Shown here piece by piece: positions 12,104 through 34,791 of a stretch of DNA of 41,887 nucleotides. A program made the position numbers and the translations under genes. Numbering within the stretch: the first letter of the stretch is position 1; each line of letters begins with the position of its first letter. The stretch spans positions 1-41,887 of the forward strand of contig JAKAIL010000003.1 of NCBI GenBank assembly GCA_021825235.1, in the 5' to 3' direction. Source of the stretch: Bacteroidota bacterium (GTDB lineage Bacteria; Bacteroidota; Ignavibacteria; Palsa-1295). Under the pieces are notes generated by a model, which saw only the letters and a program-made list of their open reading frames with translations, was not told the DNA's origin and ran no database searches.

Positions 12104-12147
12104 ATCCCGCCGGTGGACGCGGAAGCTCCAACTTCCACGGCGGGGAC
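12104..12147. repeat. REP-like palindrome, adjacent to ~8-mer AGTGCT repeats (12019-12070)
   Basis: TCCCGCCGGTGGA...TCCACGGCGGGGA imperfect inverted repeat. Confidence 0.55.
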
Positions 12148-12185
12148 TAACTTAGCCAGCAAAGGTGTTGTTGAAACAGACAAAA

Positions 12186-12497: not shown

Positions 12498-12507
12498 GTG
12501 TGCAACG

Positions 12508-12846
12508 ATGGAATTGCTATGTGGCAAGTTGGGAATGATATTGCTTGGCATATTCTGTTTCCTCGTTGGTGCTCTGGTCGCTATTGTAGCAAGCCGTAAG
12601 AATATCAAAAGCAAACGTCCTCGCTGGTTAGCGCTTATTCTGCTTTCTGTGGGTTCATTTCTGGTTAGTGCGCAATTGTTGTTTCCTAAAGTTTTAGAGG
12701 ACCACTTTTCTCTGCTACGCTATGTCATTAAGGGTGTAGCTATTATGATGCCTGTCTATGTAAGTGTAGCGGCTGATTTTGTCCGATCCCTCAGAAGAAG
12801 GGGACATCACCCTTCTGCGAACCAGCAATCGAGTTCAATTCCATGA
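12508..12846 (+). CDS. Small hypothetical membrane protein
   Basis: About 3 hydrophobic segments separated by a basic loop (RKNIKSKRPR). Confidence 0.55.
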   Translation: MELLCGKLGMILLGIFCFLVGALVAIVASRKNIKSKRPRWLALILLSVGSFLVSAQLLFPKVLEDHFSLLRYVIKGVAIMMPVYVSVAADFVRSLRRRGHHPSANQQSSSIP

Positions 12847-12906
12847 TTAACGACTGGTCGGATGCTGCGAGGCACGTTCTGAGTTCAATGTTGTTGTTTT
12901 TTACAA

Positions 12907-13170
12907 ATGCGTTCAATATTCATTTACACACTCATCCTTCTCGGCCTCTATCTTTCCTGGCTCTCGACGCGACCGCGCTTCAAAAGCGGGCTCATCAATA
13001 CGGTGCTTTATGGTTTGTCCATGGGCTTTATTGCCGGCGGTATTGTGTCTCTCTTCCCTGCGCTCGATCATGAGTCCTGGCCGTGGCCTTTGGTTCTGAT
13101 CACCTTCGGGGCCGGATTATTGCCAACAGTAGTCGAACTATTAGAGAGGCGCTTTCCGAGACATTCCTAA
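12907..13170 (+). CDS. Small hypothetical membrane protein
   Basis: About 3 hydrophobic segments; ends just upstream of the GrpB gene. Confidence 0.55.
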   Translation: MRSIFIYTLILLGLYLSWLSTRPRFKSGLINTVLYGLSMGFIAGGIVSLFPALDHESWPWPLVLITFGAGLLPTVVELLERRFPRHS

Positions 13171-13177
13171 TTGATCG

Positions 13178-13750
13178 ATGCCCCGATCCCGCACCACCAC
13201 CGAAGAAGACATCCGCGCTGCCACGATTGGCGAGGTGCGCGCACTGAACGAACAGATTCGGCTGCTGGAATACGATCCCGCATGGCCGGTGCTTTTCGAG
13301 CTGGAGGCAGCCAAAATTCGGAGCGCGCTGGGGGAGCGCGTACTCCAGCTCGATCATGTCGGTTCCACTTCCGTTCCTGGACTTTCAGCGAAACCCATCC
13401 TCGATCTATTGCTCGCAGTCGAAAACTCTGCAGAGGAAGGTGCTTACGTTCCAGAAATGGAAGCGGCCGGATATGTTCTGCACAATCGGGAACCCAAATG
13501 GTACGAGCACCGCATGTTCAAAGGGACCGGTCCGGCGGTAAATCTCCATGTCTTTTCGACGGATTGCCCGGAGATCGAGCGCATGGTCCGCTTCCGCGAC
13601 TGGCTGCGTTCCAGCGAAGCCGACCGCGAACTCTACTTGTGCACTAAGCGCGAACTTGCCCAGCGCACCTGGAAATTCACTCAGAATTACGCGGATGCGA
13701 AGACGGAAGTGGTGGAAGAAATTCTAGAACGGGCAGGAAAATCTCTTTAG
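13178..13750 (+). CDS. GrpB/UPF0157-family protein
   Basis: YDPAWP..F..E, HVGSTSVPGLSAKPILD, NLHVF, FRDWLR, Y...KRELA, YADAK. Confidence 0.9.
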   Translation: MPRSRTTTEEDIRAATIGEVRALNEQIRLLEYDPAWPVLFELEAAKIRSALGERVLQLDHVGSTSVPGLSAKPILDLLLAVENSAEEGAYVPEMEAAGYVLHNREPKWYEHRMFKGTGPAVNLHVFSTDCPEIERMVRFRDWLRSSEADRELYLCTKRELAQRTWKFTQNYADAKTEVVEEILERAGKSL

Positions 13751-13892
13751 CGTAGGTAAAAAATTTGTCGCTGGTGTGTATGAATTTCTTACATTGCCCT
13801 TGCACTGAGAGGCCCTTGCACAGGCGAAACGCGTTGGATTACCAATTGCCATGCGCGGTGGAATGCTGGAGCCCTCATTCGGTTGCGAATTT

Positions 13893-15182
13893 ATGCGCGC
13901 CAAGGATAGCAAGGCGAAACGGCGACGGTGCGGAACTGCGCTCGTTATGGCAGGCATCGTCGTTGTCCTCCTTCACGGCTGCTTTGATTTTTCGATGCCA
14001 AGGTTCGACTTTGGAAGTAACTGGCACGGGCCATCCGATACAGGAGGCACTTCGTTAACCCCTCAAGTCTGGCAGCCCTACATTTCCGGTGCGTTTCAGG
14101 GCAGCGCGGATATTATCATCACCTGCGGCCCGGTGGAGCATGCCTTCTCGCGCTACGGAGTCATTCTTTCCGACGGGGTAACGAAGGACACGATCCAAGT
14201 CGATAGTGCGATCCTTTACGAGGCAACGGTAACTCTTTCCGGCCTGAAGGCGGGTACGACCTACACCGTCTGGTCTTACATAATGGGGCCTGCGGACTTG
14301 AGTCCACCGGCCACGTTCGTCGAGACGGACGATTTTGGGAACTGGAAACAGGTCGCGGACCCGCCCTTCTCGCCCTGCTACGGAAATCTCTATTTCGCGG
14401 CAGAAGCCAAGGCCTTTGTGGTGACGGGTTCGGCGTACCAGCGGTCGTTGTTCACGTACTCACCTTCTCTCAATCGGTGGGACAGCTTGAGCCTGGGTGC
14501 CTCGAACTTCGGAAATGCAGCCGTTGCAAATAATACGTGCTTCCTCACGTCCGGTTCGGGATTCGAACAGTTCGATCCCATCCAGGGAGAGTTCGTGTTC
14601 GATTGGAGTCCACCGCCTTCGGCTGCCGCCTGGCCTGGGCTTTTCTTCACAGATGCGACATCCCTGTATTGGAGTTCCGGAAGTTCCTACGCCACGGGTG
14701 GCTCGCAGTACGACCGTTCGCTCTGGAGATTTTCACTCGATTCGGAGACCTGGACGCGGTTGCACGATGCCCCAATCAATCCGGCCAACACGCTCAACTC
14801 CGGCTTTTTTGCAGACGGCAATTACGTCTTTTCCGGGATGCCATACCGCAACTCCGCAACGTGGCCGGACAGTTGCTGGCATTACAACGCTTCCACGGAT
14901 TCGTGGGCCGTTCAAGACGTGACTGATCCCACTTCCGGCACGCGGCAATTCGCAGGAGTGATGGGGCAGGGTTTTGCTTTTGCGCATTTTACCAGCTCGG
15001 GCGGGGGTACGATCTCGATTCTCACACCTGGCACGCAAACCTGGACGCCGATGGCTCCGCTGCCGCTGTGCACTGGCACCGTCTCCTGGTACTGGCAGGT
15101 CATGACGGACAGATCGAATCTGTACCTCATCTATGGTAACGCCAACGGTTCGCGGCGGGCCTGCTGGAAGTACGTTCCTTAG
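13893..15182 (+). CDS. Putative lipoprotein with FN3-like and Kelch-like repeats (start uncertain)
   Basis: VVVLLHGC lipobox; LSGLKAGTTYTV (FN3-like); repeated Y/F-x-P-x-x-x-x-W blades. Confidence 0.65.
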   Translation: MRAKDSKAKRRRCGTALVMAGIVVVLLHGCFDFSMPRFDFGSNWHGPSDTGGTSLTPQVWQPYISGAFQGSADIIITCGPVEHAFSRYGVILSDGVTKDTIQVDSAILYEATVTLSGLKAGTTYTVWSYIMGPADLSPPATFVETDDFGNWKQVADPPFSPCYGNLYFAAEAKAFVVTGSAYQRSLFTYSPSLNRWDSLSLGASNFGNAAVANNTCFLTSGSGFEQFDPIQGEFVFDWSPPPSAAAWPGLFFTDATSLYWSSGSSYATGGSQYDRSLWRFSLDSETWTRLHDAPINPANTLNSGFFADGNYVFSGMPYRNSATWPDSCWHYNASTDSWAVQDVTDPTSGTRQFAGVMGQGFAFAHFTSSGGGTISILTPGTQTWTPMAPLPLCTGTVSWYWQVMTDRSNLYLIYGNANGSRRACWKYVP

Positions 15183-15267
15183 CGATAAGCAATCCGCCTC
15201 CATTTGATTCTGTACTTTTCCCCCGGCGGGCATTAACTCCGTTCTCCATCCGTTCCTCGTCTCACGG

Positions 15268-17886
15268 ATGATCGCTCGGCTCGCTCTCGGATTCCTGCTT
15301 CTGCCAGCAATGGTGCTGGCGCAAGGCATGGACATGCGTAGCACGTCCAGCCAGGACTCGCTTCCCTTATTGCCGGAGGCAAAGCGATTGGTACATCCAC
15401 CCGGCGTGGCGCTCGTCCTTTCCGGCGGGGGACTCAAAGGCTTTGCCCATATTGGCGTGCTCGATGTGCTCGATTCTGCGCACGTTCCTATTGATTTAAT
15501 CACGGGTACCAGCATTGGAGCGGTGGTCGGAGGGCTGTATGCCGCCGGCTACACGCCGAAACAGCTCGAGCAATTTGCGGAGTCTATTAACTGGCCGGAT
15601 GTCCTTGGCCTAACCGGCGAATCCAATCGTTCCGAACGAACGCTTAGCGAAAAGGACATGAACCACTCGTTGCTCTCGCTACGCTTCACCGGATTTTTCG
15701 ATCCGGTCATTCCGCAAGCCATTTCGAATGGCGAACGGCTGACCATGCTGTTGAACGAAATGGTATTGGGGGCACCAGCGGGCGTTCCCCGCGATTTTCT
15801 TCGCGACCTTCGGGTTCCCTTCGTGGCTGTTACTACCGATATTGTCCATGGCACCCGCCGCCTGCTTACCCGTGGTGATTTGACGGAAGCACTCCGGGCG
15901 AGTGCAACACTGCCGCTCCGATTTAGTCCGCTGCCGATCAATACGGGTTCCACAGAGGGCGATTCTGCCATTCTGATGGATGGCGGGCTCATCTCGAACA
16001 TTCCAGCCGATGTCGCAAAGGAGTTCGGAGCGTCGCGCATCATTGTGTCCAACGCGACGGCGGGTCTCCACCCGCGTAACGAACTGAATACACCGTGGGA
16101 TGTAGCCGATCAGGTGATTACGCTGATGATGCTGCGGGAGAACGCCAAGGAACTCCGATATTCGAATTGTACCATTACCCCGGAACTTTCTGGAATCGAT
16201 GAGAACGATTATTCGAAAATTCCGGAGTTTATCGAAGCCGGTCGTGAAGCCGCGCGTGCCATGCTGCCGGAGATCGAGCGGGATATTGCAGCGGTAAAAG
16301 ATCCCACACCGCCTGCCGTACCGGAAGATACACTGTTGCCCGTGCTTCGCGCAATTCGAATGATCGGAACGCAGCACCGATATGTGGATTCCGCGGTCCT
16401 GTTCGATCGTTCCCTGCTCGACCAGCCATTACTGCGTTCCCAGAACATGAAGGCCATCGAGCAGCGAGTTCTCCAGGATTACCGGTCCCAGGGTTTCAGT
16501 TTGGTCCGAATCGATAGTGTGGTATTGCGGACAACTATTGGCCGCGCTGATTTATATGTAGATGAAGGCCACATTGGACGAATTGCCGTTCGCGGGAGCG
16601 AAAACACCGATACGGATTTTGCCTTGCGCGAAGTAGCATTTCACCCCGGTGATATTTTCCGCGCTACGGCGGGCAAACAATCGTTGCAAAATCTGACGGG
16701 TACCGGGCTATTCGATTTCGCGATTCTTCAAGTAGCCTACGATACCCTATGGCCTGGAACCCAGTATATTCGAACCGCAGATACATTTGCTTATCCGGAA
16801 GGTGCGCCATCGTTTGGGCCTTCGGTGATCCTCACCGTCCATTCGGAGAGTCCGAATGTGTTGCGCCTCGGCGTGCTGGCGGATAATGAATTCGGTGCTG
16901 AGTTTTCCGCGCAATTGGCGAACGAAAATATCAGTGGAAGCGGAATGGAATATGTGCTAACCGGAAGTATCGGTTCCCAGGCGCGGTCCGCTTCGTTGGC
17001 CTTTTCCGCGCCGCGTTTGCTGCACGGCTTCGGGGTGCTCGATGCACGCGCCTATGCTGGCTACCGTGATATTAACGCGTATGCCGTTCTTACGGATGTT
17101 ACCCAACAGAGCATCCGCAATACCGTGACGGATGTGGTGCGGGAATCGAGAGACTGGGGTATCCGCCTCCGCCTGGGTGGCCAGATCGAGCGCCTGGGTG
17201 CGCTAACCGTGGCACTCCGGGCCGAAAAGCAATCCTGGTTCAGTGTGCGCGACAGCGTGGGGGATAGCGGCTCGGACCAGGTGCGGGCACTGCGTGCTCA
17301 ATTGCTCCTCGATTCCCGCGATGATGCAAACTATCCTCATACCGGCAGTTACGTTCGCGGTTACGCAGAGACGGGCCTAACGCTGCTCGGAGTAGGAACG
17401 AATTACACGAAACTATTCGGAGAAGTAGCGCAGGCAATCCCGCTTTCTCCCCTGCATACCCTTATACCTCGGTTCCAGGTAGGCTTTGCCGATGCCGAAT
17501 TGCCCCGGCTCGAACAATTCGATTTGGGCGGCATGGAATCCTTTTATGGATTGAACGAATATGAATTGCGCGGAAAGCAGATGGTGGAAGGGAGCTTAAC
17601 CTACCAGATCGCAATCCCTCACGCTCTCTTTTTCCCGACGTTCGTCTCCGTGCGTTATGATGTGGGTGCTGTTTGGCCCGAGCCGGCTGCGATTAAATTC
17701 GAGTCCCTCTTGGACGGTATTGGCGCTCAGGTCGGAGTCAAAACGCCGCTCGGGCTCGCTCAGTTTGGAATCGGCGAGAATTTCCGCTTTGTTAAAGTAC
17801 CTGGTACGTCGCCGCTAAGGGAGCCATCGCATGTAATTGCGTGGAATGCTCCGCACTTCTACTTCTCGATCGGTTCCCGGCTGTAG
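15268..17886 (+). CDS. Patatin phospholipase-POTRA-Omp85 barrel fusion (PlpD/type Vd-like)
   Basis: Signal peptide; LSGGGLKG, GTSIG, DGG patatin motifs; POTRA-like VDEGHIGRIAVRG...LTGTGLF; barrel ending FYFSIGSRL. Confidence 0.85.
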   Translation: MIARLALGFLLLPAMVLAQGMDMRSTSSQDSLPLLPEAKRLVHPPGVALVLSGGGLKGFAHIGVLDVLDSAHVPIDLITGTSIGAVVGGLYAAGYTPKQLEQFAESINWPDVLGLTGESNRSERTLSEKDMNHSLLSLRFTGFFDPVIPQAISNGERLTMLLNEMVLGAPAGVPRDFLRDLRVPFVAVTTDIVHGTRRLLTRGDLTEALRASATLPLRFSPLPINTGSTEGDSAILMDGGLISNIPADVAKEFGASRIIVSNATAGLHPRNELNTPWDVADQVITLMMLRENAKELRYSNCTITPELSGIDENDYSKIPEFIEAGREAARAMLPEIERDIAAVKDPTPPAVPEDTLLPVLRAIRMIGTQHRYVDSAVLFDRSLLDQPLLRSQNMKAIEQRVLQDYRSQGFSLVRIDSVVLRTTIGRADLYVDEGHIGRIAVRGSENTDTDFALREVAFHPGDIFRATAGKQSLQNLTGTGLFDFAILQVAYDTLWPGTQYIRTADTFAYPEGAPSFGPSVILTVHSESPNVLRLGVLADNEFGAEFSAQLANENISGSGMEYVLTGSIGSQARSASLAFSAPRLLHGFGVLDARAYAGYRDINAYAVLTDVTQQSIRNTVTDVVRESRDWGIRLRLGGQIERLGALTVALRAEKQSWFSVRDSVGDSGSDQVRALRAQLLLDSRDDANYPHTGSYVRGYAETGLTLLGVGTNYTKLFGEVAQAIPLSPLHTLIPRFQVGFADAELPRLEQFDLGGMESFYGLNEYELRGKQMVEGSLTYQIAIPHALFFPTFVSVRYDVGAVWPEPAAIKFESLLDGIGAQVGVKTPLGLAQFGIGENFRFVKVPGTSPLREPSHVIAWNAPHFYFSIGSRL

Positions 17887-19574: not shown

Positions 19575-19749
19575 TGTCGTTAAGAATCTATTAGGTTAAA
19601 TCTCTATGTCAAACTCGGCGAAGCAAGAACCATCCAAGGATGAGCGGTCATCCGGCATAATGCTTTGTAAACTTGACATACCGTAATATAAGCGGCGAAC
19701 TGTCAGTTTCCCTGACACTTGCATGGTATTCTATAGAAAAGTAAAAATC

Positions 19750-19765
19750 GCCGAATGCGTGCCAA
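19750..19765 (-). promoter_or_regulatory. Possible sigma54 promoter
   Basis: TTGGCACGCATTCGGC (GG-N10-GC); palindrome GTATC-N5-GATAC upstream at 19844-19858. Confidence 0.45.
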
Positions 19766-20268
19766 ATTCAGCATGTCAAAATTAAATACTTATCTAATAG
19801 ACAGCGTCAACATTGCAAATTGGAATGACGACGAGGCAAAAGTGTATCAGAACGATACGGATTCATGAAGCGACGACCCATCACCGGTGGTTCAACAGGG
19901 AGGTCCACGGATGAGTGATCTGCCAGAGGATGTTCCATGCACCTGCAATCCGCCTGGAGGACTTAGATAGGGAATCCCGAGGCCAAGAGCTCCGAGGATA
20001 AATCAGTAGCGGCAGAAGCGCGGTAAGCACCGGCGGAAGAAACCGGACCCCGGTACGGGAAGCCTACCCAGGCCGAAGGATGCCATTAACAGAAGGCTCT
20101 GCGATAGGTACTAAGCATGCCGAGCAGCGCAGACCAAACAAGACCGCACGGCAAGAGGCCATGAGCGATCCTTGGAAGAGCGATCACCCCTGCCTGCTTA
20201 AGAACCAGTTGGGAACCTGCGAGACCCAACATCGAAATACCCTGCCGCAACAGAAATCACACGGCCGA

Positions 20269-20531
20269 GTCGACGAATCTTACTTATGAATAGGAAGATT
20301 TATTTACCGGTCTCTGTAAAATTTCTTTACCATCTGGAAGGAATGCGGGTGTTGTCTTGAGGACCGTAAAGGAACTTTCCGCGATCTTACAAAATAATTT
20401 AACATGGTTGACTTTCTGAAAATATAACGGTAAGAATATTCGAAGGAAAAATTCTGATACGAAGAAACAAAAATCTCATGCTTCCTTCAAAAGCATAAAA
20501 AAATTTTTGACAGGTAGTAAGATTTACTTAC
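20269..20531. promoter_or_regulatory. Array of 15-bp GTAAG-N5-CTTAC-like boxes upstream of operon A
   Basis: GGAAGATTTATTTAC 20293, GTAAAATTTCTTTAC 20316, GTAAAGGAACTTTCC 20366, GTAAGAATATTCGAA 20430, GTAAGATTTACTTAC 20517. Confidence 0.65.
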
Positions 20532-20597
20532 GAACATCGCGAGGAGTGTTAAAGAATTATCCGTCGAATCAAGCGAAATCGTGCAATTGATTGACGT

Positions 20598-20614
20598 GGG
20601 TATGCTGGTTGCTA
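20598..20614 (+). promoter_or_regulatory. Sigma54-like -24/-12 promoter of operon A
   Basis: GGGTATGCTGGTTGCTA (GG-N10-GC); nearly identical to the element upstream of operon B. Confidence 0.65.
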
Positions 20615-20735
20615 TGCGTGTTCCAATAATTTTTACAGGATGGGGAAACATGCGCGATGGAAACGTTGCGATGTCCTCCCATCAGCCATAATGATTGAGT
20701 CAAGCATCCACGGAAGGGGCGATTTACTATTTAAC

Positions 20736-21713
20736 ATGGAACAGAACGAAGCAACAAGCAGAAGAAAATTTTTGAAGGTCGCAGCCGCTGCCGGGGCTGT
20801 CATCGCGACCGGTGCCGGACTTAAGAAAGCATTCTCAGCGGATAATCCATCCGGCAGCGATTCGCTCTCGGCAAGCTCTTCCCCAGCCGATACTTCGGCA
20901 TCCGGAGCCGATACTGCCGCGGCTGGTGAGAAGCTAAAAGTTCTTACACCCAGCGGTACGCTTCTCGAAATTGACAGCGCCCATGCCTATGCTACGCAGC
21001 ACAAGCCGGTATCCAATGAAGAAGCACGTATCGGCATACCAGGCCGAAAGTTCGTGATGGTCATTGATCTCTCGAAGTGCGATGGCTGCCGGAAGTGTAC
21101 GAAGGCGTGTCAGAAAATGCACTTTACCCCACCGGACCGCGAGTGGATCAAGGTCTTCGAAATGAAGGATTCGGAAGAAACCGGATCTTACTGGATGCCG
21201 AAGCCCTGCTTCCATTGCGATAATCCTCCCTGCACGAAAGTCTGCCCCGTTGGAGCAACGTTCAAGCGGGAAGATGGCATTGTTCTCATCGATAATACCC
21301 GTTGCATTGGCTGCCGCTTCTGTATGGCGGCCTGCCCATACTCCACGCGGTACTTTAATTGGGAGCACCCTGCAGAAATTCCCGCCATGGCGGATATTCC
21401 GTACACGCCGGAACAAGGGTATCCGCGCCGCGTGGGAACTGCCGAAAAGTGCGATTTCTGTCCGGACATGATTCGTGAAGGGCGCATGCCGGCCTGTATC
21501 GATTCCTGTGATATGGGCGCACTCTATTTCGGCGATGAGAACGAAGATGCGGTAACCAATTCCAATGGTGAGACGGTCCGCTTAAGCACGTTGCTCGATC
21601 AGAACGCGGGATACCGTTTTATGGAAGAATTGGGAACGAAGCCACGCGTCTATTATCTCCCGCCCAAGAATCGCCGTTATCCGGAACCCGTGCATGCAAC
21701 GGTCGTCGGATAA
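20736..21713 (+). CDS. Tat-exported 4x[4Fe-4S] protein (NrfC/PsrB/DsrO family)
   Basis: SRRKFLK Tat motif; CDGCRKCTKAC, CFHCDNPPCTKVCP, CIGCRFCMAACP, KCDFC...PACIDSC. Confidence 0.92.
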   Translation: MEQNEATSRRKFLKVAAAAGAVIATGAGLKKAFSADNPSGSDSLSASSSPADTSASGADTAAAGEKLKVLTPSGTLLEIDSAHAYATQHKPVSNEEARIGIPGRKFVMVIDLSKCDGCRKCTKACQKMHFTPPDREWIKVFEMKDSEETGSYWMPKPCFHCDNPPCTKVCPVGATFKREDGIVLIDNTRCIGCRFCMAACPYSTRYFNWEHPAEIPAMADIPYTPEQGYPRRVGTAEKCDFCPDMIREGRMPACIDSCDMGALYFGDENEDAVTNSNGETVRLSTLLDQNAGYRFMEELGTKPRVYYLPPKNRRYPEPVHATVVG

Positions 21714-21766
21714 TACCATCGTACAGTAGAGTAGAACGGTACCATCAGCCGCCACAAACCTTTATT

Positions 21767-23272
21767 ATGGAACACATTACAAAACAGAAGAACGGAGTAG
21801 CAATGGCTCTTGCCGGAGGAGAAACGGGCGAGAGCCGTGGAGATTTTCCACTTCCGACTGGACCGGGCATCGAAAGCATACGCCAGCATTATTTGCGCCC
21901 CATTGCGCCGGGTAATTTTGGGACGCGAAGCAAGTATTGGATTGCTGGGCTCCTTGTTGTTATGGCATGGGGGCTTTATGCCTACATCCATCAACTACAG
22001 ATGGGTCTCGAAGCCACGGCGATGCGGAACTATGTGTCATGGGGGCTCTATATTGCTACCTTCGTCTTTATTATCGGCATCAGCCATTCGGGCACTCTGG
22101 TCTCAGCCATCCTCCGGGTGACGAATCAGGAATGGCGGCGACCGATTACGCGATCGGCGGAGCTTCTGACGGCCGTCGCACTTATGTTCGGTGGGCTAAT
22201 GCCCATCATCGACATGGGGCGTCCGGACCGCGTGCTCAACCTGATCTTTTACGGACGTATTCAATCCCCCTTACTGTGGGATGTTTTGTGCGTCACGACT
22301 TACTTTACGGGAAGTGTGATGTTCTTGTATTTGCCGATGATCCCGGACATTGCACTGGCGAAGAAGCGGTTTGCTACAACCGGCTCGAAGTTTCGGCTTT
22401 GGGTCTACGATAAGCTTTCGATGGGCTGGCAGGGAACTCCGGAGCAATGGCGCCGGCTCGAACGCGCCATGCGAGTCATGACCGTCATGATCATTCCGAT
22501 CGCGGTTTCCGTACACACCGTGATCTCCTATATCTTTGCAATGACCTTACGGGCAGGATGGGATAGCACCGTGTTCGGGCCCTATTTCGTCGTCGGTGCA
22601 CTGTATTCTGGTTCCGCCGGCGTGATCCTGGTAATGGCGGCATTCCGCAAAATCTATCACCTGGAAGAATTTATTACTCCGCGCCATTTTGACTTAATGG
22701 GGAAAATCGTGCTATCGCTCACGATGATTTATGCCTATTTCAATCTCAATGAATATTGGATCCCAGCGTATAAAATGGCCTCCGGGGAAGCGCCACTGCT
22801 GCACTCGCTCTTCTCCGGTAACCTTTCTACTCTCTTCTGGACCTTACAGTTCGGGACGGTGCTGATTCCCATCATTATCCTGGCCACTCCACGTGGTCGC
22901 AGGCCTACCCTTTCGGTTATTGCTTGCATCATCATCGTGGTCGGTGCCTGGGTGAAGCGATACGCCATTGTCATTCCCGTGCTTGAGCATCCATTCCTTC
23001 CGATGCAGCATGCCCCGCAATCGTGGACGCATTACTTCCCCAATTGGGTGGAATTCTCCGTTGTTGGTGGTATGCTGGCCGGAATATTCTTAGTCCTTAC
23101 CCTCTTTTCGAAGTTCTTCCCCATTAGTTCCATCTGGGAAGTGGAAGAAGGCGTCCACCGATCGGAACATTCGGCGCACGATCACTCATCCGGTCAATCG
23201 CACCTTGCAGCAAATGGGAAGGACACTAATCACAAACACATTCCTGCAGTCGAGGAGGCCTTCGCGCAATGA
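21767..23272 (+). CDS. NrfD/PsrC-family quinone-interacting membrane subunit (ActC/QrcD-like)
   Basis: WGLYIATFVF.IGISHSGTLVSAIL, WRRPITR.AE, DMGRP.R, SPLLWD, SVHTV.S; many TM helices. Confidence 0.92.
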   Translation: MEHITKQKNGVAMALAGGETGESRGDFPLPTGPGIESIRQHYLRPIAPGNFGTRSKYWIAGLLVVMAWGLYAYIHQLQMGLEATAMRNYVSWGLYIATFVFIIGISHSGTLVSAILRVTNQEWRRPITRSAELLTAVALMFGGLMPIIDMGRPDRVLNLIFYGRIQSPLLWDVLCVTTYFTGSVMFLYLPMIPDIALAKKRFATTGSKFRLWVYDKLSMGWQGTPEQWRRLERAMRVMTVMIIPIAVSVHTVISYIFAMTLRAGWDSTVFGPYFVVGALYSGSAGVILVMAAFRKIYHLEEFITPRHFDLMGKIVLSLTMIYAYFNLNEYWIPAYKMASGEAPLLHSLFSGNLSTLFWTLQFGTVLIPIIILATPRGRRPTLSVIACIIIVVGAWVKRYAIVIPVLEHPFLPMQHAPQSWTHYFPNWVEFSVVGGMLAGIFLVLTLFSKFFPISSIWEVEEGVHRSEHSAHDHSSGQSHLAANGKDTNHKHIPAVEEAFAQ

Positions 23273-23925
23273 AAATTCTAAGATGCTCTCTACTATTCGT
23301 GCTCGCACTATTCCTGTTCAGCGTGCATGTACGCCGCTCTCTGGCCATGGACTCTATGGGCGGTATGGCGATGGATTCCGCAGGCGCCAGCACCGCCGCT
23401 GTGAGCGCGAGTGGCGCCGGCGATTCCTCCGCTTCCAATGCCAAACTTACGCTCGCTGTAACGGATGGCGATACGGTTTGGAACGTCCAGGCGAACTTTA
23501 TCGGCCCGGATTCAACCGGCAAGATCGGACCGCTCGCCAATCAGACCGTTAGCTTTTACGTCAAACGGCTCTTTGGCATCATGCCGATGCGAGACGATGA
23601 TAACACGGGAACGACGGATGATTCCGGAAACGCCGTGATTCAAATGCCGAAAAACATTCCCGGTGGTACCACCGGGATGCTCACGATCATTGCTCGTGTG
23701 GAACAAGACGATCAAACCGGTTTGGTCGCCGCCAGCGATTCTGGACATTGGGGGAAGGTCGTTCCTCTCGAGGCTAATCCATTCCCACGCGCGCTGTGGG
23801 AGCCCAATGCGCCCATTTCCATGATCATCGTTTTTGTCATTCTCTTCGGTGGCGTATGGTCCACCTACGGATTTGTAGTAACTCAACTTGTAACCATTAA
23901 AAAGGAACACCAGAATGAAGCATAA
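23269..23925 (+). CDS. Hypothetical periplasmic protein with C-terminal TM anchor
   Basis: Signal peptide, Met-rich start, beta-rich core (TTDDSGNA), C-terminal hydrophobic helix; ATGA-coupled to the nrfD-like gene. Confidence 0.8.
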   Translation: MKILRCSLLFVLALFLFSVHVRRSLAMDSMGGMAMDSAGASTAAVSASGAGDSSASNAKLTLAVTDGDTVWNVQANFIGPDSTGKIGPLANQTVSFYVKRLFGIMPMRDDDNTGTTDDSGNAVIQMPKNIPGGTTGMLTIIARVEQDDQTGLVAASDSGHWGKVVPLEANPFPRALWEPNAPISMIIVFVILFGGVWSTYGFVVTQLVTIKKEHQNEA

Positions 23926-24343
23926 ATCAGTATCCTCCCTTAGTGCTATCTTTCTTTCGATAGCCATTGCGGGGTTCATCGTTGCGTTTATTGTGACGAA
24001 TTCACCTGCAAGCAATGCCGGGAAATGGATGGCGCCAGCCTCCGCGAATAACATGAAAAATCCGGTCGCGAAGACGCCGGTCTCCATTCAGGACGGCAGG
24101 AAAATATTCAATAAAGAATGCAGTTCCTGCCACGGGCCAAAAGGTTTGGGCAATGGCCCAAAGGCGGGCGACCTGAATATTCAACCCAGCAACCTTGCCT
24201 CCCATTTGGTACAGAGCCAAAGCGATGGAGCGATCTTCTGGAAGATCACCACGGGCAATAAGCCGATGCCAACGTTTCGGACGGCCTATTCCGATCAAGA
24301 CCGTTGGAACCTTGTGAACTTTGTACGCACGCTGGGAAAGTAA
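23915..24343 (+). CDS. Monoheme class I cytochrome c
   Basis: CSSCH; SDGAIFWKITTG..PMP.F (distal Met); N-terminal hydrophobic segment. Confidence 0.9.
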   Translation: MKHKSVSSLSAIFLSIAIAGFIVAFIVTNSPASNAGKWMAPASANNMKNPVAKTPVSIQDGRKIFNKECSSCHGPKGLGNGPKAGDLNIQPSNLASHLVQSQSDGAIFWKITTGNKPMPTFRTAYSDQDRWNLVNFVRTLGK

Positions 24344-24428
24344 ACGGAAGCATTTATCTCATTTCCGCGCATCCACAGCCCCCTTTACTGTCAATGCGCA
24401 ACCCTGTTCATTTATCAGAACTACTACC

Positions 24429-25697
24429 ATGAAACGATTCATCACGATTCAATTACTCCTGCTGGCAAGCGCGGTTCTGCTGTTGGTCTCCGTAACCAAA
24501 AGCAACGCCATGCCGATATTCGCTCGCAAGTATGGCTTCAAATGTTCGTATTGCCATACCACGATTCCGCGTTTGAACGAGACGGGATTTCGGTTCCGGG
24601 CCGCGGGCTTCCGGCTGCCAAGCGATATCGGTGGGCCACAACCCGATGAAAATTACCAACTCGGTAACTATCTTGCAATAGCGCTTACGGGTGCACTGTC
24701 TAATAACACAACAAATCCTCCGGGCGCAGCTTCTACTTCTACCTTTTCCATGGGACTCGATCAGATTATGGTGGCCGCGGCTGGTGCGATGACCCCGGAG
24801 ATGTCCGGCGATGTACATTTGATGTACGATCCAATGAGCGGCACATTCGGGCTCGATAAAGCCTATGCGCAATACACCACCGGTGCCGAAAATGGATTCT
24901 TCACTGCCAAGCTGGGCGTGCTCGATCCGTTCCAGGGCTATCAGGCCTCGGATGAGGCGATGGGGCTTTCGGATCCACTCATAAAAGCCGACGCTGCGGT
25001 TGGACCCAATGGTTCCACGCTCTTCACGTCCGGTGGGCTTCCACAATTCGGATTGGAACTTGGATATACCTGGCCGACGACGGCTGTACGAGCTTCGGTC
25101 CTGGGTGGCGTGTTTAATTCCAGTGGCCAACCAATGCCCGTCGAGGGAACCGGTGGTAAACCGGTGGGACCCTCACAGAATAGCGTTGATTTTCAACTCT
25201 TCGTTACGCAGTTCCTGAATCAGGAAGGGGCCGGACTTTCGGGGTACTTCTACATGGGCAGTATCGACCTTCCGACCGGAGTTAGTTCCAGTTCGCCCGA
25301 TAGCAATGTCTTTCAGGATAAGTTCATTCGCTATGCGATCTACGGAACGCTTCCCATCTCCTCGTTTCAGGTGCTGGCCGGTTGGCAACAGGGAACCGAT
25401 AATAGCTGGGACTCCACGACCTTTGCGAAGGGTAGCGACTTTTCGAGTTCCGGATTCTTTGGTGAACTCGATTACCAGCTCGCTCCGCTTCTGGGCGTGG
25501 GCGTCCGCTATGATCAATTCGATCCCTGGACGAAGCAATCCGATAATCTAATAAACGGTGTGGCTGGCTTTGTCAATTATGCCGTTGGGGACGGGCTCCA
25601 ATTCGTTGGAGAATATCAGTCACTTACTACTCAGCAAGGCCCCGGACAAAAAGAGACCGACGGTAGCTTTGGAATCAACGTGATCTGGATTCACTAA
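24429..25697 (+). CDS. cyc2: Cyc2-like fused monoheme cytochrome-porin (copy A)
   Basis: After the signal peptide: AMPIFARKYGFKCSYCHTTIPRLNETGFRFRAAGF, matching the Cyc2 AxPxFAR[Q/K][T/Y]-x3-CxxCH-x3-PxL motif; beta-strand-rich remainder. Confidence 0.88.
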   Translation: MKRFITIQLLLLASAVLLLVSVTKSNAMPIFARKYGFKCSYCHTTIPRLNETGFRFRAAGFRLPSDIGGPQPDENYQLGNYLAIALTGALSNNTTNPPGAASTSTFSMGLDQIMVAAAGAMTPEMSGDVHLMYDPMSGTFGLDKAYAQYTTGAENGFFTAKLGVLDPFQGYQASDEAMGLSDPLIKADAAVGPNGSTLFTSGGLPQFGLELGYTWPTTAVRASVLGGVFNSSGQPMPVEGTGGKPVGPSQNSVDFQLFVTQFLNQEGAGLSGYFYMGSIDLPTGVSSSSPDSNVFQDKFIRYAIYGTLPISSFQVLAGWQQGTDNSWDSTTFAKGSDFSSSGFFGELDYQLAPLLGVGVRYDQFDPWTKQSDNLINGVAGFVNYAVGDGLQFVGEYQSLTTQQGPGQKETDGSFGINVIWIH

Positions 25698-25752: not shown

Positions 25753-25786
25753 ATGGGAGATGCCTGAGAGGCATCTCCCATTTTTT
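25753..25786 (+). terminator. Intrinsic terminator of operon A
   Basis: ATGGGAGATGCCT-GAG-AGGCATCTCCCAT followed by TTTTT. Confidence 0.9.
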
Positions 25787-25809
25787 GTCGTATTTCTGCA
25801 TTTCCTCCT

Positions 25810-26417
25810 ATGAAACAAGAACGTTCTCTTTCGACCCAGCCGCTCGTACCGTTGATCTGCACAATCCGGAACAGCCGCGTCATGTTCGAGGCGGACTTAG
25901 CCAGATTGTATGGCGTTAGCACAAAGCGTTTTAACCAAGCATTTAATCGAAATCGTCTCCGATTTCCGGAGGATTTTGCATTTCAGCTTTCAGCTGTAAG
26001 AATGTAAGATACTTCCATTAGAAACACAAGAGCTCCTTTTGAGGTCGCAATTTGCGACCTCAAACAACGAGAAAGAAAATAAGGGGATGCCGACGCTATC
26101 TGCCCTGGGCCCTCACCGAGCACGGCGCGCTTATGGCCGCAAATATTCTTCGAAGTAAACGTACTCGCGAAATGAGTGTCTTTATCATTCGAGCGTTCGC
26201 AAAACTACGCGAGGAAACTGCTGCAAATGCGGTAATCCTCAAACGCTTTGCGGAGATTGATAGGACATTGCTTGTGCATGAAAAGGAGCTGCGAAAGCTT
26301 TATCAACAGCTCCGTCCACTGCTGGCTCCTGGCGAAGTGTCATCCAAACGAAGAATCGGATTTCGAACTCCCGGTGAAGAGGGCTCTCTCACATCAAGCA
26401 GGGATGGGCGAAAGTAG
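25810..26417 (+). pseudogene. ORF6N (KilA-N-like) DNA-binding protein, frameshifted
   Basis: IRNSRVMFEADLARLYGVSTKRFNQA..RN..RFPEDFAFQLS, then LRSQFATS, then RRYLPWALTEHGALMAANILRS and KRRIGF, not in one continuous frame. Confidence 0.85.
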
Positions 26418-26439
26418 CATGTCGCAATATGTAACCAGT

Positions 26440-26973
26440 TCAAGCATTCGCCACTCGTTTCAGGAAGCAGACTCGTGAAATGGCATCATATATCGCATGG
26501 CTGCCAATGTGCTCATAGCCGAGCGCTTCATTCATGTGGATAGCTTCAGCATTTTCCGGATGCTGGAATGTAAAGATCCATTCGATACCGCGCGATTTAC
26601 ATTCCGCTTCAAGTGTGCTCTTTAGTTCACGGGCGATCCCTTGCCGGCGGAATTCCGGCTCGACCCACAGATCGAAAATCTCTGCAAAGCGCATGGAAGA
26701 CCCAATGATTGGAATAAGAAGTTTCCAGGTATTTTCCGTGACCGTTGGTTCCGAAGGGTTTGAAGTGCGAACCATGATAGCGCCGACGGAACGATTAGCA
26801 GTTTGAGCAACGAAGCTAAAGTTCTGACTTTCCTCTAGGAAGCTTCGGATCAGGGCCTCCCGTTTGGCCTTAGCTCCCTGCCAATCGAAGCCCTCCCGAT
26901 CGCAGGAACGCTGGTCGATGGAAAGCAGAAGTGGGAGATCGACCATCGTGGCGCGGTGTAGGGAATAATCCAT
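26440..26973 (-). CDS. GNAT-family N-acetyltransferase
   Basis: LWVEPEFRRQGIA acetyl-CoA motif; N..AI.MNEALGY. Confidence 0.85.
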   Translation of the reverse strand: MDYSLHRATMVDLPLLLSIDQRSCDREGFDWQGAKAKREALIRSFLEESQNFSFVAQTANRSVGAIMVRTSNPSEPTVTENTWKLLIPIIGSSMRFAEIFDLWVEPEFRRQGIARELKSTLEAECKSRGIEWIFTFQHPENAEAIHMNEALGYEHIGSHAIYDAISRVCFLKRVANA

Positions 26974-27041: not shown

Positions 27042-27070
27042 AAAAAACCCTCTCCGTTCGAGAGGGTTTT
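27042..27070 (-). terminator. Intrinsic terminator of operon B
   Basis: AAAACCCTCTC-loop-GAGAGGGTTTT with a T-tract on the minus strand. Confidence 0.85.
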
Positions 27071-27092
27071 CAGTGTGATCTTCTCTAACCGA

Positions 27093-28535: not shown

Positions 28536-29206
28536 GCCATCACCTCCTTCGTTTTGACGAGGTTACGGAATGATTGATAGCGCACCTTCAGATGACCCTC
28601 TTCGATTTTGGATTCGAGTGAATCCATATCTCGCGGCGGGGGCCCTGAAATCAGTTTGCCGGTTGCCGCAAACTTACCACCATGGCACGGGCATTTGAAT
28701 TGGTGATCGTCATCGACATACTTAACCGAGCAGCCCAAGTGTGGACAGACCGCCGTTAGCACCGCCGGTTGGCCGTCTGCGCCTTTGATTACGTACACCA
28801 CCTTTTCGGAATTGACTTTTCTCCAACCATCGAGTTGGGTAATCGAGATCGTCTTCTTTTGTGGTGTGCTCAGGTCACCCAAATCATCCACGGAACCCAG
28901 GTCGGTCCATTCCGTTTCCTGGGAAACCCGGAGCAGCGGATCGATCGCGAACCGAAACAGCGGTACGGAAAGCGCGCCTGCTACTCCCACGGTTCCGATT
29001 CCGAGGAACCATCCGAGGAACCGGCGCCGCGCCACAGACTCCGCCGCACCGAGCGTGCCACCGGCGGCCGTATGTTCGTGCCCGGAAGTCATCTCTAAAT
29101 GCGAAGCATCATGCGCCGAGCGCCCATTCGTTGGAATGGGCGCCCGTTGCTGGATTTCGTTGGATGACCGATTATCCGTTACTTCTTCTTTTGACTTTCG
29201 AGCCAT
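28532..29206 (-). CDS. Rieske [2Fe-2S] subunit (true start may be ATG 29092)
   Basis: ARRRFLG Tat motif plus TM helix; CPHLGC and CPCHGGKF boxes; GPPPR. Confidence 0.93.
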   Translation of the reverse strand: MARKSKEEVTDNRSSNEIQQRAPIPTNGRSAHDASHLEMTSGHEHTAAGGTLGAAESVARRRFLGWFLGIGTVGVAGALSVPLFRFAIDPLLRVSQETEWTDLGSVDDLGDLSTPQKKTISITQLDGWRKVNSEKVVYVIKGADGQPAVLTAVCPHLGCSVKYVDDDHQFKCPCHGGKFAATGKLISGPPPRDMDSLESKIEEGHLKVRYQSFRNLVKTKEVMA

Positions 29207-29520
29207 GCCGTCAGTGTGTTAAGTTCTTCATCGGAACCAGTGAACTTTTTCATGTGCTTTTTGCCATGCTGTTCCACTTCCTTGTGCAGCCACTGCTTCA
29301 TCCAGTCCTGCGTATGGCGGTCGCCAACGTCGGAAAGATCGGGTGGTGGATACTTCGCACCTTCCGGCGGCTCGCTGGTATGATGAATACCCTGCGAGGA
29401 GATCGAATGGCACTTGTTGCACCCGTTATCGAGGAAAAGGCTCTTTCCCGAATTGCTTTTGAGTGTGGCGCTCGTGAGTAAACCGGTCGCGAGCAAACCT
29501 AAGAATAGTGTTTTCTTCAT
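29179..29520 (-). CDS. Small periplasmic monoheme cytochrome c
   Basis: Signal peptide MKKTLFLGLLATGLL; CNKCH; PPDLSDVG; KKHMKKF. Confidence 0.9.
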   Translation of the reverse strand: MKKTLFLGLLATGLLTSATLKSNSGKSLFLDNGCNKCHSISSQGIHHTSEPPEGAKYPPPDLSDVGDRHTQDWMKQWLHKEVEQHGKKHMKKFTGSDEELNTLTAWLESQKKK

Positions 29521-29543
29521 CGAATTATTATCCTTCCTTTGAT

Positions 29544-30899
29544 TTATTGGAACCAACTGACACGCAGCGCAAAGGCATTATTCTGTGCTGTTCCCAGCAA
29601 GCTCTCTCCATTCGAAGTCGGAGTCTTTGTGCTCGTGGCAGCGTAGGAGGCGGTGAGCGAGAACCCATCGCCGAAATTATAGTCCACGTAGCCCGTAATC
29701 ACGTTAATGTTATCGATGCTGGCGTTCGAATTGTCTGGCGTTACTGCATCGTAGCGCGCGCCAACGCCGATGAGGTCCGTAACCGGATAATCGGCTTCGC
29801 CGAACCAGCCAGAGCTGCTGATATCCGGGCCATACGAGAAGGTTTTCAGAGCCCAGCTATTATCGGAACCGTGTTCATAGCCGCCTTCCAGAAGGACCTT
29901 CGCGACGGGAATCGGGTAACTCGCATAGATCGCATAGCGGCTGAATTTATTTTGCCAGAATTCCGAATCGACATTGGTCGAAGCAGAGCCCGTGTTAATG
30001 TCGGCGTTTCCAAGGTAGTACGCCGCGGAAATACCGCCACCATCCTCGGTCAGGATATAGTTGGCCCAAAACATATAGTCAAAGGAATTAGCGGAGGGGG
30101 CTTGCCCTGCACCGACGCCGGTCGGTTTACCGGCCACGGCTGCCGAAGGCTTTCCGCCGGCATAGGTATAACCACTCAGGACTTCCGCATGTACCGTCGC
30201 TTCACCGAAGACATATCCGAGATCGATTCCCATATTGGAACCAGTCAGTCCGGTGTACGTGGGCTTTACCCCGCCATTCTGATAATTATACAAGCTGATT
30301 GCATACCCCGAATTCATCTTCGGGCTGCCACTCCACCCACGATCGGAGCCGCCGTAGCCCATGAAGGTATTAAGCTTTCCAATGCGTGCCGAGAACCAGG
30401 AATCTTCGGTACCCGTGTAATAACCAACAGAAGCCGTCGAAACTTCGAGGCTGCCATTGGTGCTGAACCCGAGTTCCGATTCTGATGAGATATTCGGCGT
30501 TAGAGCGCCGAATATGGCATAGATAGAACCACCGGTGAAGGCCATGTTCATGTTGCTAACCGAGGGCGATCCGGATGCCGCCGCGGTTGCCGACGACTGA
30601 TTCACGGCAAAATTCAGCCTGCCCGCGAAGTAGTCCCCGATGTTATACGATGCTTGTTTCTGCCCGATTTCGTCCGGCATCCGGTAACCGGCTGCACGGA
30701 ATTTCCAGCCGAATTCGTTCAGTTTCGGAATTACGTCATGGCAGCTGCCGCAGCCAAGGCCGTACTTCCGCGCGAAATTAGGCATCGCGCTGGCCGTGTG
30801 TAGTATGGGAATTACGGGCGATGCCGAAATCGCGAAGAGTGCAAGCAGGAGCGCCATCACCCGTAGTGTCTGTTGGAGTTGTAAGCTATGAGAACGCAT
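29544..30899 (-). CDS. cyc2: Cyc2-like fused monoheme cytochrome-porin (copy B)
   Basis: AMPNFARKYGLGCGSCHDVIPKLNEFGWKFRAAGYRMP Cyc2 motif after the signal peptide; beta-barrel-like body ending ALRVSWFQ. Confidence 0.9.
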   Translation of the reverse strand: MRSHSLQLQQTLRVMALLLALFAISASPVIPILHTASAMPNFARKYGLGCGSCHDVIPKLNEFGWKFRAAGYRMPDEIGQKQASYNIGDYFAGRLNFAVNQSSATAAASGSPSVSNMNMAFTGGSIYAIFGALTPNISSESELGFSTNGSLEVSTASVGYYTGTEDSWFSARIGKLNTFMGYGGSDRGWSGSPKMNSGYAISLYNYQNGGVKPTYTGLTGSNMGIDLGYVFGEATVHAEVLSGYTYAGGKPSAAVAGKPTGVGAGQAPSANSFDYMFWANYILTEDGGGISAAYYLGNADINTGSASTNVDSEFWQNKFSRYAIYASYPIPVAKVLLEGGYEHGSDNSWALKTFSYGPDISSSGWFGEADYPVTDLIGVGARYDAVTPDNSNASIDNINVITGYVDYNFGDGFSLTASYAATSTKTPTSNGESLLGTAQNNAFALRVSWFQ

Positions 30900-31383: not shown

Positions 31384-31515
31384 GGACTACGGACAGTGGA
31401 AAGTGGACAACGGATAGTGGATAATGGAAAGTACCGTGGACAACGGATAGTGGATAGTACCGCCTGAGTAGTCTCCATTATCCACTATCCACTATCCACT
31501 TTCCACTTTCCACTA
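31381..31515. repeat. Inverted arrays of degenerate 7-bp tandem repeats
   Basis: (AGTGGAT/AACGGAT/AGTGGAA)n followed by (TCCACTA/TCCACTT)n. Confidence 0.9.
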
Positions 31516-34746: not shown

Positions 34747-34791
34747 GTGCGGTCCCTAAGTGCTAAAGTACTGAGTGCTGAAGTGGCCCTA

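Follow-up and report, generated by a model that had tools for sequence, protein, structure and literature searches.

Cyc2 proteins are described in PMC8406198 as having a signal peptide, a single CXXCH haem motif with AXPXFAR[Q/K][T/Y] before it and PXL after it, a length of 365 residues or more and a 16-strand porin. For the neutrophilic iron oxidisers Mariprofundus and Gallionellaceae, an electron path from Cyc2 through Cyc1 and alternative complex III (ACIII) or bc1 to quinone was proposed in PMC4643136, based on genome co-occurrence and proteomics in organisms with the full actAB1B2CDEF set; the step between Cyc2 and the quinone pool is still open in models of iron oxidation, ACIII/bc1 being proposed mainly from co-occurrence. 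ACIII itself (ActABCDEF) is represented by the structures from Rhodothermus marinus (6F0K) and Flavobacterium johnsoniae (6BTM). Here we describe a five-gene locus (positions 20736–25697) in a stretch of 41,887 nt, hereafter the window (contig JAKAIL010000003.1, forward strand; assembly GCA_021825235.1), from a member of the Bacteroidota (class Ignavibacteria). In this locus a reduced, ACIII-like cassette of four genes shares one operon with a gene for a protein bearing the Cyc2 signature (Cyc2a). A second operon alongside combines another Cyc2 gene (Cyc2b) with Rieske and cytochrome b genes, and across the class cyc2 usually lies beside quinone modules. These arrangements are new; the module family was already known, and a functional pairing of Cyc2 with ACIII/bc1 had been proposed previously.

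The five genes are closely packed on the + strand, and lie at the positions given in the initial annotation (Table 1), start codons as chosen below from the open reading frames (ORFs). Genes 1 and 2 are separated by 53 bases, genes 2 and 3 overlap by 4 bases and genes 3 and 4 by 11, and a gap of 85 bases precedes gene 5. A scan of the + strand for hairpins with T-runs found no terminator-like site between genes 1 and 5, the sole one following cyc2a. The ORF of gene 1 can be extended to an ATG at 20640; for gene 5, the ORF finder chose TTG at 24321, and ATG at 24429 is the likelier start. The same order of five genes was found in four other distinct sequences, namely L004 (with its 99.9% twin L079), L080, L028 and L029, whose cassettes share 72–78% nucleotide identity with that of the window, and the arrangement is therefore not due to chance. 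Among named records, a Candidatus Kapaibacterium genome (L004) is the nearest. In L028 and L029 the Cyc2 proteins are just 32–39% identical to that of the window, as against 55–77% for their cassette proteins, so the position of cyc2 is conserved even though the porin diverges.

The gene 5 product (Cyc2a) matched no Pfam or NCBIfam family, and it is assigned to the Cyc2 family by the published motif signature: its single CXXCH, near the N-terminus, lies in AMPIFARKY-GFK-CSYCH-TTI-PRL. With 422 amino acids (aa) it is above the 365-residue minimum. Its N-terminus is hydrophobic (helix 2–19 in the structural model) and ends in KSNA right before the motif.

The membrane subunit encoded by gene 2 belongs to the NrfD family (PF03916, 125.8 bits, E = 3.8e-36), and its solved relatives were the ActC chains of ACIII (6btm_C, 8k9e_C, 6lod_C and 6f0k_C) plus weak ActF matches only. 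In the phmmer search of the PDB, 6btm_C scored 212 bits (query residues 47–460 against chain residues 29–444) and the three further ActC chains about 210 bits, so that ActC proteins of four species were matched, and no PsrC or other NrfD-family chain was matched down to E 0.001. The protein shares 32% identity with the ActC encoded elsewhere in its own genome. In NCBIfam, DsrP was the best match (119.2 bits, cut-off 350), and QrcD scored 90 against a cut-off of 570; the relation to QrcD, DsrP, PsrC and CbcU is read from these hidden Markov model scores and the PDB search, not from a tree. The initial annotation had proposed an NrfD phylogeny that would include such clades. Our quick maximum-likelihood tree of 64 rows, with support values from the Shimodaira–Hasegawa-like approximate likelihood ratio test (SH-aLRT) only, was made up of canonical ActC (12 rows, support 97), ActA/ActB-type (18 rows, 86) and cassette proteins (33 rows, 99), and it places the window protein with the cassette proteins in a clade of their own, apart from canonical ActC. 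Within that clade, the window protein and its three Cyc2-linked relatives form one group (support 100) adjoining cassettes of Chitinophagaceae and Saprospiraceae (support 99), not the cassette of another genome of the same class, and this placement hints at transfer of the cassette within the phylum.

According to PMC5928083, the quinol pocket of ActC has its charged residues at His139, Asp169 and Asp253 (R. marinus numbering). The window protein has D149, D172 and I256 at these sites, so that only the middle Asp (D169) is kept. The His/Asp/Asp triad is present in 12/12 canonical ActC rows, and the His or the second Asp in 0/51 cassette and ActA/ActB-type rows. The quinone pocket of the cassette subunit is thus remodelled, and because two of the three charged residues are changed, the quinone chemistry of the module is an assumption. 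Among the proton-path residues named in PMC5928083, the window protein keeps 11 of 13 cytoplasmic and 4 of 6 periplasmic ones; several of these positions are lost in many Flavobacterium and Bacteroidales cassettes. We regard the gene 2 product as an ActC-like subunit with a presumed quinone site and a presumed proton path.

The gene 1 protein contains four Cys motifs with 16 Cys in total (CX2CX2CX3C, CX2CX4CX3CP, CX2CX2CX3CP and CX2CX11CX3C in the translation) and therefore fits four cubane iron–sulfur (Fe-S) clusters; it matched Fer4_11 at 2e-22 in Pfam. The twin-arginine translocation (Tat) signal first noticed on this protein is confirmed as SRRKFLK, 9 residues after the ATG at 20736. The Pfam TAT_signal model gave 18.2 bits, under its cut-off of 22.7, and a Ser/Ala/Asp-rich linker of about 70 residues lies behind the signal. 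The top NCBIfam match was DsrO (194.1 bits, cut-off 200), followed at a distance by QrcC (135.8 against 400) and NrfC (130 against 377.6), with TtrB far under its cut-off. In the PDB, PsrB (2vpw_B) scored 115 bits and ActB (6f0k_B) 86 bits, and BLAST aligned the protein at 30% identity with residues 788–1012, the C-terminal Fe-S part, of the genome's own ActB. The monohaem class I cytochrome c encoded by gene 4 matched Cytochrome_CBB3 (1.5e-14) and is 30% identical to the genome's own ActE. It has an N-terminal signal or anchor, and a K/E-W-x-x-P motif behind the hydrophobic N-terminus is conserved across cassette loci.

Gene 3 encodes a conserved protein with no Pfam, NCBIfam or PDB sequence match (best PDB E 2.5) and no BLAST match to ActD. 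Of the 33 other cassette loci, 27 contain a relative, and the Bacteroidales members are fused behind a cytochrome c. An AlphaFold2 model (mean predicted local distance difference test score, pLDDT, 74.5) shows a signal helix, disorder at residues 24–55, a beta-sandwich at 59–159, a membrane helix at 183–217 and a basic tail. Foldseek returned generic immunoglobulin (Ig)-like and macroglobulin domains only (best E 9.8e-4, TM-score 0.34/0.59), and with matches this generic, no family was assigned. Multimer modelling, which the initial annotation had put forward as a check, was done for gene 3 with NrfD and gave a score of 0.50, against 0.00 for the best of three controls, in runs sharing at least 88% of contacts with a partner pLDDT of at least 73. 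Of 157 solved complexes, 116 also passed the mark that this complex model passes, as did 2 of 215 mismatched pairs; only 18 of the 157 solved complexes, but both of the passing mismatches, did so with scores of 0.60 or less, and the support is weak. Together, the synteny, the translational overlap with gene 2 and this model suggest that gene 3 encodes a structural subunit with an Ig-like sandwich carried on a C-terminal membrane helix.

As initially annotated, the locus contains no molybdopterin subunit, NrfA or multihaem protein such as pentahaem ActA; besides the Fe-S and NrfD-family proteins it encodes only the gene 3 protein, the monohaem cytochrome and Cyc2a. The absence of a catalytic subunit extends beyond the locus, with 0 matches to the molybdopterin family PF00384 in the assembled genome, which is 92% complete and to which all genome-wide negatives below refer. 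A search with PF03916 found two NrfD-family genes only, gene 2 of the window and the actC of a canonical ACIII on contig C23, where genes for pentahaem ActA, a 1037-aa ActB, ActC, ActD, ActE and ActF lie next to cox genes. This ActA is the only ORF in the genome with three or more CXXCH motifs, and no other recognisable outer-membrane redox system was found.

Compared with ACIII, the window has a full-length ActC homologue, a part resembling the four-cluster ActB2 and an ActE-like monohaem cytochrome, and quinol/cytochrome c activity is likely to be shared; most proton-path residues are kept. It lacks ActA, the molybdopterin-like ActB1, ActD and the second NrfD-like protein ActF; the only ActA and ActB of the genome lie with their own ActC–F on C23. 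It differs further in its Ig-like single-pass subunit, in the separate ActC clade noted above and in having cyc2 in the operon. The initial annotation had called the pair NrfC/NrfD and the whole ACIII-like. The first name is wrong, as the NrfC equivalog test failed and the sole pentahaem protein of the genome is ActA; the second description held up, because the ActC-only solved relatives and the absence of ActA, ActB1, ActD and ActF from the locus make this a cut-down ACIII-like module, not NrfCD proper, in keeping with the resemblance of genes 1 and 4 to parts of ActB and ActE. QrcABCD of sulfate reducers likewise includes an NrfC/NrfD-type pair working with periplasmic c-type cytochromes, but hexahaem QrcA and QrcB are missing here and the QrcC and QrcD scores are far under their cut-offs. 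DsrMKJOP supplies the best NCBIfam matches, DsrO for the Fe-S protein and DsrP (far under its cut-off) for the membrane protein, yet DsrM, DsrK and DsrJ are absent from the locus and the solved structures favour ActC. Clade II nitrous oxide reducers offer a further parallel in NosGH and NosC1/C2, where an NrfC/NrfD-like pair together with monohaem cytochromes c feeds a periplasmic enzyme and likewise lacks a catalytic subunit of its own; the window showed no nos genes. The model for Mariprofundus and Gallionellaceae (PMC4643136) likewise couples Cyc2 to an ACIII- or bc-type quinone module of the inner membrane; unlike the organisms treated there, the present genome belongs to the Bacteroidota, combines a reduced four-gene module and cyc2 in one operon, and yielded no RuBisCO. 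In literature searches, supplementary tables aside, neither the cassette nor a cyc2-linked reduced ACIII was found in print, and DUF5777, a family of neighbouring barrels described below, returned no paper.

The distribution of cyc2 was surveyed in 201 genomes of the class with a profile built from ten Cyc2 sequences (E ≤1e-10). Matches were found in 83 of them, including 23 near-full-model matches in 20 genomes. Of these 23 full-length genes 22 were examined, and 17 lay beside a quinone module: 2 beside the cassette, 5 beside an ActA/ActB/NrfD-type cluster and 10 beside Rieske/cytochrome b genes, counts that come from related, non-independent genomes and carry no statistic. The remaining 5 had no quinone module in view, three of them being near a contig end. 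A partial Cyc2 match in genome G050 also adjoins the cassette and is the third such case. In this class, then, cyc2 genes usually adjoin one of three kinds of quinone-pool oxidoreductase, and the window itself holds two such pairs. The coupling of the module to Cyc2 put forward in the initial annotation fits this class-wide adjacency as well as the operon structure and its recurrence in five distinct sequences.

Cyc2b, the product of the first gene in the second operon, is 35% identical to Cyc2a and has the motif AMPNFARKY-GLG-CGSCH-DVI-PKL; the ORF finder placed its start at TTG 31001. The fused 480-aa cytochrome b encoded by the last gene matched Cytochrome_B (7.2e-44), Cytochrom_B_C (4.3e-11) and Cytochrom_C (2.8e-8). 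Orthologues of Cyc2b lead the same operon with 74–78% identity in G173 and G165 and 62% in G089, and Cyc2b-type operons with Rieske and cytochrome b genes also occur in G173, G089, G006 and G157, which belong to the same genus and family. Directly past the operon lies the gene for a resistance-nodulation-division (RND) efflux permease, which matched the CusA/CzcA family at 465 bits against a cut-off of 701.

Other cyc2-associated clusters were seen in the survey. Five loci from one family of the class (L032 and L040–L043, in G118, G159, G135, G021 and G052) and one from Eisenbacteria (L013) carry an eight-gene cluster encoding Cyc2, a monohaem cytochrome, pentahaem ActA, split ActB1 and ActB2, NrfD, a tetrahaem cytochrome and a 236-aa CarboxypepD_reg protein, that is, an ACIII/Qrc-like complex without ActD and ActF, linked to Cyc2. 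In the Eisenbacteria locus cyc2 lies upstream of the ActA/ActB/NrfD cluster. Contig C230 of G000 carries, at about 13280–16340 (L078, 6555–10337), a third Cyc2-like gene, which is more divergent and encodes 413 aa (N-terminal match to the profile, 72.6 bits). Its neighbours encode two cytochromes c, one dihaem and one monohaem, and a CarboxypepD_reg-like protein, and no quinone module lies with them; G089, G165 and G006 have this cluster as well (L067, L066 and L068). Genomes of the same genus also encode a ten-haem MtrA-like cytochrome and a possible porin of about 800 aa a few kb from cyc2 (L028, 14108–17491; L068, 15409–18879; L069, 3749–7202), and no ORF with more than five haem motifs was found in the genome of the window.

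The cassette was searched for in the class sample of 201 genomes, in a phylum sample of 401 genomes and in species-representative and metagenome scans. Nineteen of the 201 class genomes, its own included, had an NrfD match of at least 338 bits, all other matches being canonical ActC at 250 bits or less; of the 19, four carry the cassette (G000, G060, G050 and G090) and 15 the ActA/ActB1/ActB2/NrfD/tetrahaem type. In the phylum sample 16 genomes matched at E ≤1e-90, and the nine outside the class all carry the cassette. The species-representative scan gave 25 loci, of which 21 were of the cassette type, three of the ActB-large type and one a canonical ACIII. Another 27 loci came from the metagenome scan, five of them near-identical to earlier loci or to one another; they included one more distinct Cyc2-linked cassette (L080) and otherwise showed the same three neighbour patterns.

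These patterns were counted in the 33 cassette loci other than the window. The neighbour was Cyc2 in 3 (L004, L028 and L029), a DUF5777 outer-membrane barrel with a cytochrome-like protein of about 130 aa in 17 (including all nine phylum-sample genomes outside the class), and a caa3 oxidase operon directly downstream in 3. The remaining 10, eight of which are short or truncated stretches, had none of these; of the other two, L003 has CusB-like, AcrB-family and P-type ATPase genes around the cassette, and in Bacillota locus L020 the cassette is followed by cupredoxin proteins. Nearly all neighbours are redox proteins of the periplasm or outer membrane, and since the cassette is elsewhere wired to the DUF5777 barrel with its cytochrome or to caa3 oxidase, its output would be a periplasmic c-type haem. 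The initial annotation had held that the coupling to Cyc2 would fail if the cassette usually occurred without cyc2 and served a reductase encoded elsewhere. The former is what we found, with cyc2 at only 3 of 33 loci; the latter is not, the usual neighbour being an adjacent barrel with haem proteins or caa3 oxidase, not a remote reductase.

The DUF5777-type Bacteroidota cassette has the same four proteins, Ig-like subunit included, with an NrfD protein 40–65% identical to that of the window, and it too lacks a catalytic subunit and stands beside an outer-membrane beta-barrel and small haem proteins. Some of these loci add an EB_dh haem-domain protein or a six-haem MtrC/F-like cytochrome. The difference lies in the barrel, which is unlike Cyc2, the partner in the window being a bona fide Cyc2-family cytochrome–porin. 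The idea that the DUF5777 barrel is a split Cyc2 was rejected at the sequence level (hhalign probability 1.25%), and the small neighbouring cytochromes lack the Cyc2 motif; without profile similarity the two barrels are analogous at most. One locus (L053 in G366, 7915–15089) holds two full cassette copies in tandem, which follow a six-haem MtrC/F-like cytochrome, an EB_dh protein, a small cytochrome and a DUF5777 barrel. In two Bacteroidota loci without the barrel, a protein of 388–398 aa with no Pfam match is encoded behind the cassette (L003, 12766–13932; L008/L085, 3174–4370) and may be another kind of partner.

From gene content, homologies, operon anatomy and neighbourhoods we infer the assembly of a complex, electron transfer to Cyc2, its direction and its substrate as follows. 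The products of genes 1–4 would form a four-subunit complex of the inner membrane, a cut-down relative of ACIII, with the Ig-like single-pass protein as a structural subunit. The ActC-type subunit would bind menaquinone or menaquinol at the periplasmic face, and the Tat-exported Fe-S protein, seated on it, would pass electrons to or from the monohaem cytochrome c. Cyc2a would be the outer-membrane end, so that the five proteins would join the quinone pool to a redox-active solute at the cell surface, be it iron or another. An electron link of this kind between the menaquinone pool and Cyc2, running in either direction through the ActC-like subunit, the Fe-S protein and the monohaem cytochrome, is probably what the locus encodes. 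For the full path, from menaquinol via the Fe-S protein, cytochrome c and Cyc2 to an external acceptor as the electron exit of a heterotroph, with the ActC-like subunit conserving energy during quinol-to-Cyc2 flow, we would put the chances somewhat short of even.

The direction from quinol to Cyc2 is slightly favoured because no CO2-fixation marker was found, because the modules come without an oxidase and because relatives of the cassette occur in heterotrophs. RuBisCO was not found in the assembled genome, so that reverse electron flow for CO2 fixation is not evidently needed. Both quinone-linked cyc2 operons of the window combine Cyc2 with a module of the quinol:cytochrome c type and contain no oxidase, and Cyc2 homologues are reported from Fe(III)-reducing taxa, including Ignavibacteriaceae (PMC6344600). 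Among haem-copper oxidases the genome showed one clear A-type and one weak COX1-like match, with no match for FixO/cbb3.

Several observations weigh against a menaquinol-driven exit through Cyc2a. The characterised Cyc2 proteins are Fe(II) oxidases as described in PMC8406198, which fits the opposite direction. The relatives of the module run either way, ACIII oxidising quinol and Qrc being an electrogenic quinone reductase (PMC13059093), so the module family sets no direction. Naming the outer-membrane cytochrome the terminal partner, as the initial annotation did, presupposes one. In the ActC-like subunit, two of the three charged quinone-site residues are altered (H139→D and D253→I). ATP-citrate lyase (PF16114) had no match, but control genomes were equally silent, and a genome 92% complete may yet hold a CO2-fixation pathway. 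As a general complex III the module would be redundant, because the genome has the canonical ACIII on C23 as well as Rieske/cytochrome b. The AlphaFold2 model of Cyc2a shows 16 strands but is of low confidence (pLDDT 50.8, predicted TM-score 0.58, from a 10-row alignment). The cassette mostly occurs without cyc2 (30 of 33 other loci), and within the genus it was found in 3/9 genomes, as against Cyc2-like matches in 9/9; Cyc2 therefore does not need the cassette, which is an accessory partner.

The same five proteins might work in reverse, with Cyc2a oxidising Fe(II), the cytochrome c handing electrons on to the Fe-S/ActC-like complex, and the latter spending proton-motive force to reduce menaquinone, an uphill branch like that proposed for ACIII or bc1 in proteobacterial iron oxidisers. 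We consider this rather unlikely, though it is the strongest of the alternatives: Fe(II) oxidation is the activity of the tested Cyc2 proteins (PMC8406198), the published path for neutrophilic iron oxidisers runs from Cyc2 over Cyc1 and ACIII/bc1 to quinone (PMC4643136), and the four DNA runs in which the window DNA was present belong to one study and carry the label mine drainage metagenome, one of them being its possible source. Since most proton-path residues of ActC are kept, the membrane potential could drive the module, and the A-type haem-copper oxidase is at hand for a downhill branch. Yet no RuBisCO was found, no lithoautotrophic trait was seen, neither quinone-linked cyc2 operon holds an oxidase, and many relatives of the cassette are found in Flavobacterium and Chitinophagaceae. 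These are aerobic heterotrophs and are not known as iron oxidisers.

Two further explanations would sever the module from Cyc2 or from energy metabolism. The cassette could be a second ACIII feeding the periplasmic cytochrome c pool and a caa3 oxidase, with co-regulation or gene mobility, not a dedicated electron path, accounting for its adjacency to cyc2a. In Bacteroidales the cassette is indeed directly followed by SCO1, COX1, COX3, COX4, COX2 (with a cytochrome c domain) and CtaB (L019, L021, L024, L098, L100 and L102), the window genome has an A-type oxidase, and the cassette is accessory in the genus (3/9 genomes). Such a role is improbable here given that genes 1–5 are continuous up to a single terminator, that Cyc2 keeps its position in five distinct sequences despite its strong divergence, that two other kinds of quinone module also adjoin cyc2 in the class, and that the genome already has an ACIII beside cox genes on C23. 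More improbable still is a function in metal handling, in which electrons drawn from quinol, or taken up, would change the redox state of a toxic or scarce metal (Cu, Fe, Mn) at the outer membrane and so serve resistance or uptake. The RND permease beside the second cyc2 operon would fit this, as would locus L003, where the cassette lies between CusB-like/AcrB-family genes and a P-type cation ATPase gene; but this adjacency to efflux genes is loose, and an energy-coupled ActC-type subunit with a kept proton path exceeds the needs of a detoxifying reductase.

Candidate quinone partners of Cyc2 are here written into operons, in a pattern repeated across the class, at the very step that the iron-oxidation models leave open. 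As a small and well-delimited set of genes, the locus lends itself to expression, reconstitution and structural work, allows a test of Cyc2-type porins in electron export as well as uptake, and provides a functional hint for the widespread Bacteroidota cassette. More speculatively, and with the chances clearly against it, a reduced ActC-type complex may be the dedicated inner-membrane terminal of outer-membrane redox porins across the Bacteroidota, Cyc2 here replacing the DUF5777 barrel and its small cytochrome. If true, the inner-membrane partner of Cyc2 would be named genetically for the first time, and Cyc2 would act as a reductase, the exit of menaquinol-driven respiration on extracellular iron in a heterotroph.

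Table 1 Positions of the two cyc2 operons and of further features in the window.
Feature	Position	Strand	Basis or remark
Gene 1, Tat-exported four-cluster Fe-S subunit (ActB2/DsrO/PsrB-like), 325 aa	20736–21713	+	Fer4_11, SRRKFLK
Gene 2, ActC-like NrfD-family membrane subunit, 501 aa	21767–23272	+	PF03916
Gene 3, conserved subunit without family match, 218 aa	23269–23925	+	Synteny, AlphaFold2 model
Gene 4, monohaem cytochrome c (ActE-like), 142 aa	23915–24343	+	Cytochrome_CBB3, one CXXCH
Gene 5, Cyc2a, cytochrome–porin fusion of the Cyc2 family, 422 aa	24429–25697	+	Cyc2 motif signature
Intrinsic terminator ending the five-gene operon	25753–25790	+	Hairpin 25753–25781, 13 pairs (7 G-C), loop 3, T-run
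Cyc2b, first gene of the neighbouring operon	29544–30899	-	Cyc2 motif
Monohaem cytochrome c, 125 aa, second operon	29179–29556	-	Cytochrom_C 1.3e-8
Rieske 2Fe-2S subunit, 224 aa	28532–29206	-	PF00355 1.6e-12; PetC-like NCBIfam matches under cut-offs
Cytochrome b (b6 + subunit IV type) with C-terminal monohaem cytochrome c, 480 aa	27093–28535	-	Pfam
Terminator-like hairpin ending the Cyc2b/Rieske/cytochrome b operon	27043–27071	-	12-pair stem, then T-run
Stretch without convincing ORF, 1.16 kb	19575–20735		G+C-rich core at about 19860–20290
ORF between the two cyc2 operons, 121 aa	26052–26417		
GNAT acetyltransferase	26440–26973	-	
RND efflux permease (1077 aa) and two further ORFs (410 and 559 aa)	31513–37700	-	CusA/CzcA family match
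Protein of 872 aa	15268–17886		Patatin-like phospholipase domain, POTRA and Omp85 (Pfam)

The stretch without a convincing ORF directly upstream of the five-gene operon is single-copy in the genome and had no blastn match in L004, L028, L029 or L065–L070, and a scan of the whole window with Rfam found no family reaching its gathering score. The two cyc2 operons are divided by the 121-aa ORF and the acetyltransferase gene, which together span 26052–26973. Farther upstream, the window also encodes the large patatin/Omp85 protein listed in Table 1.

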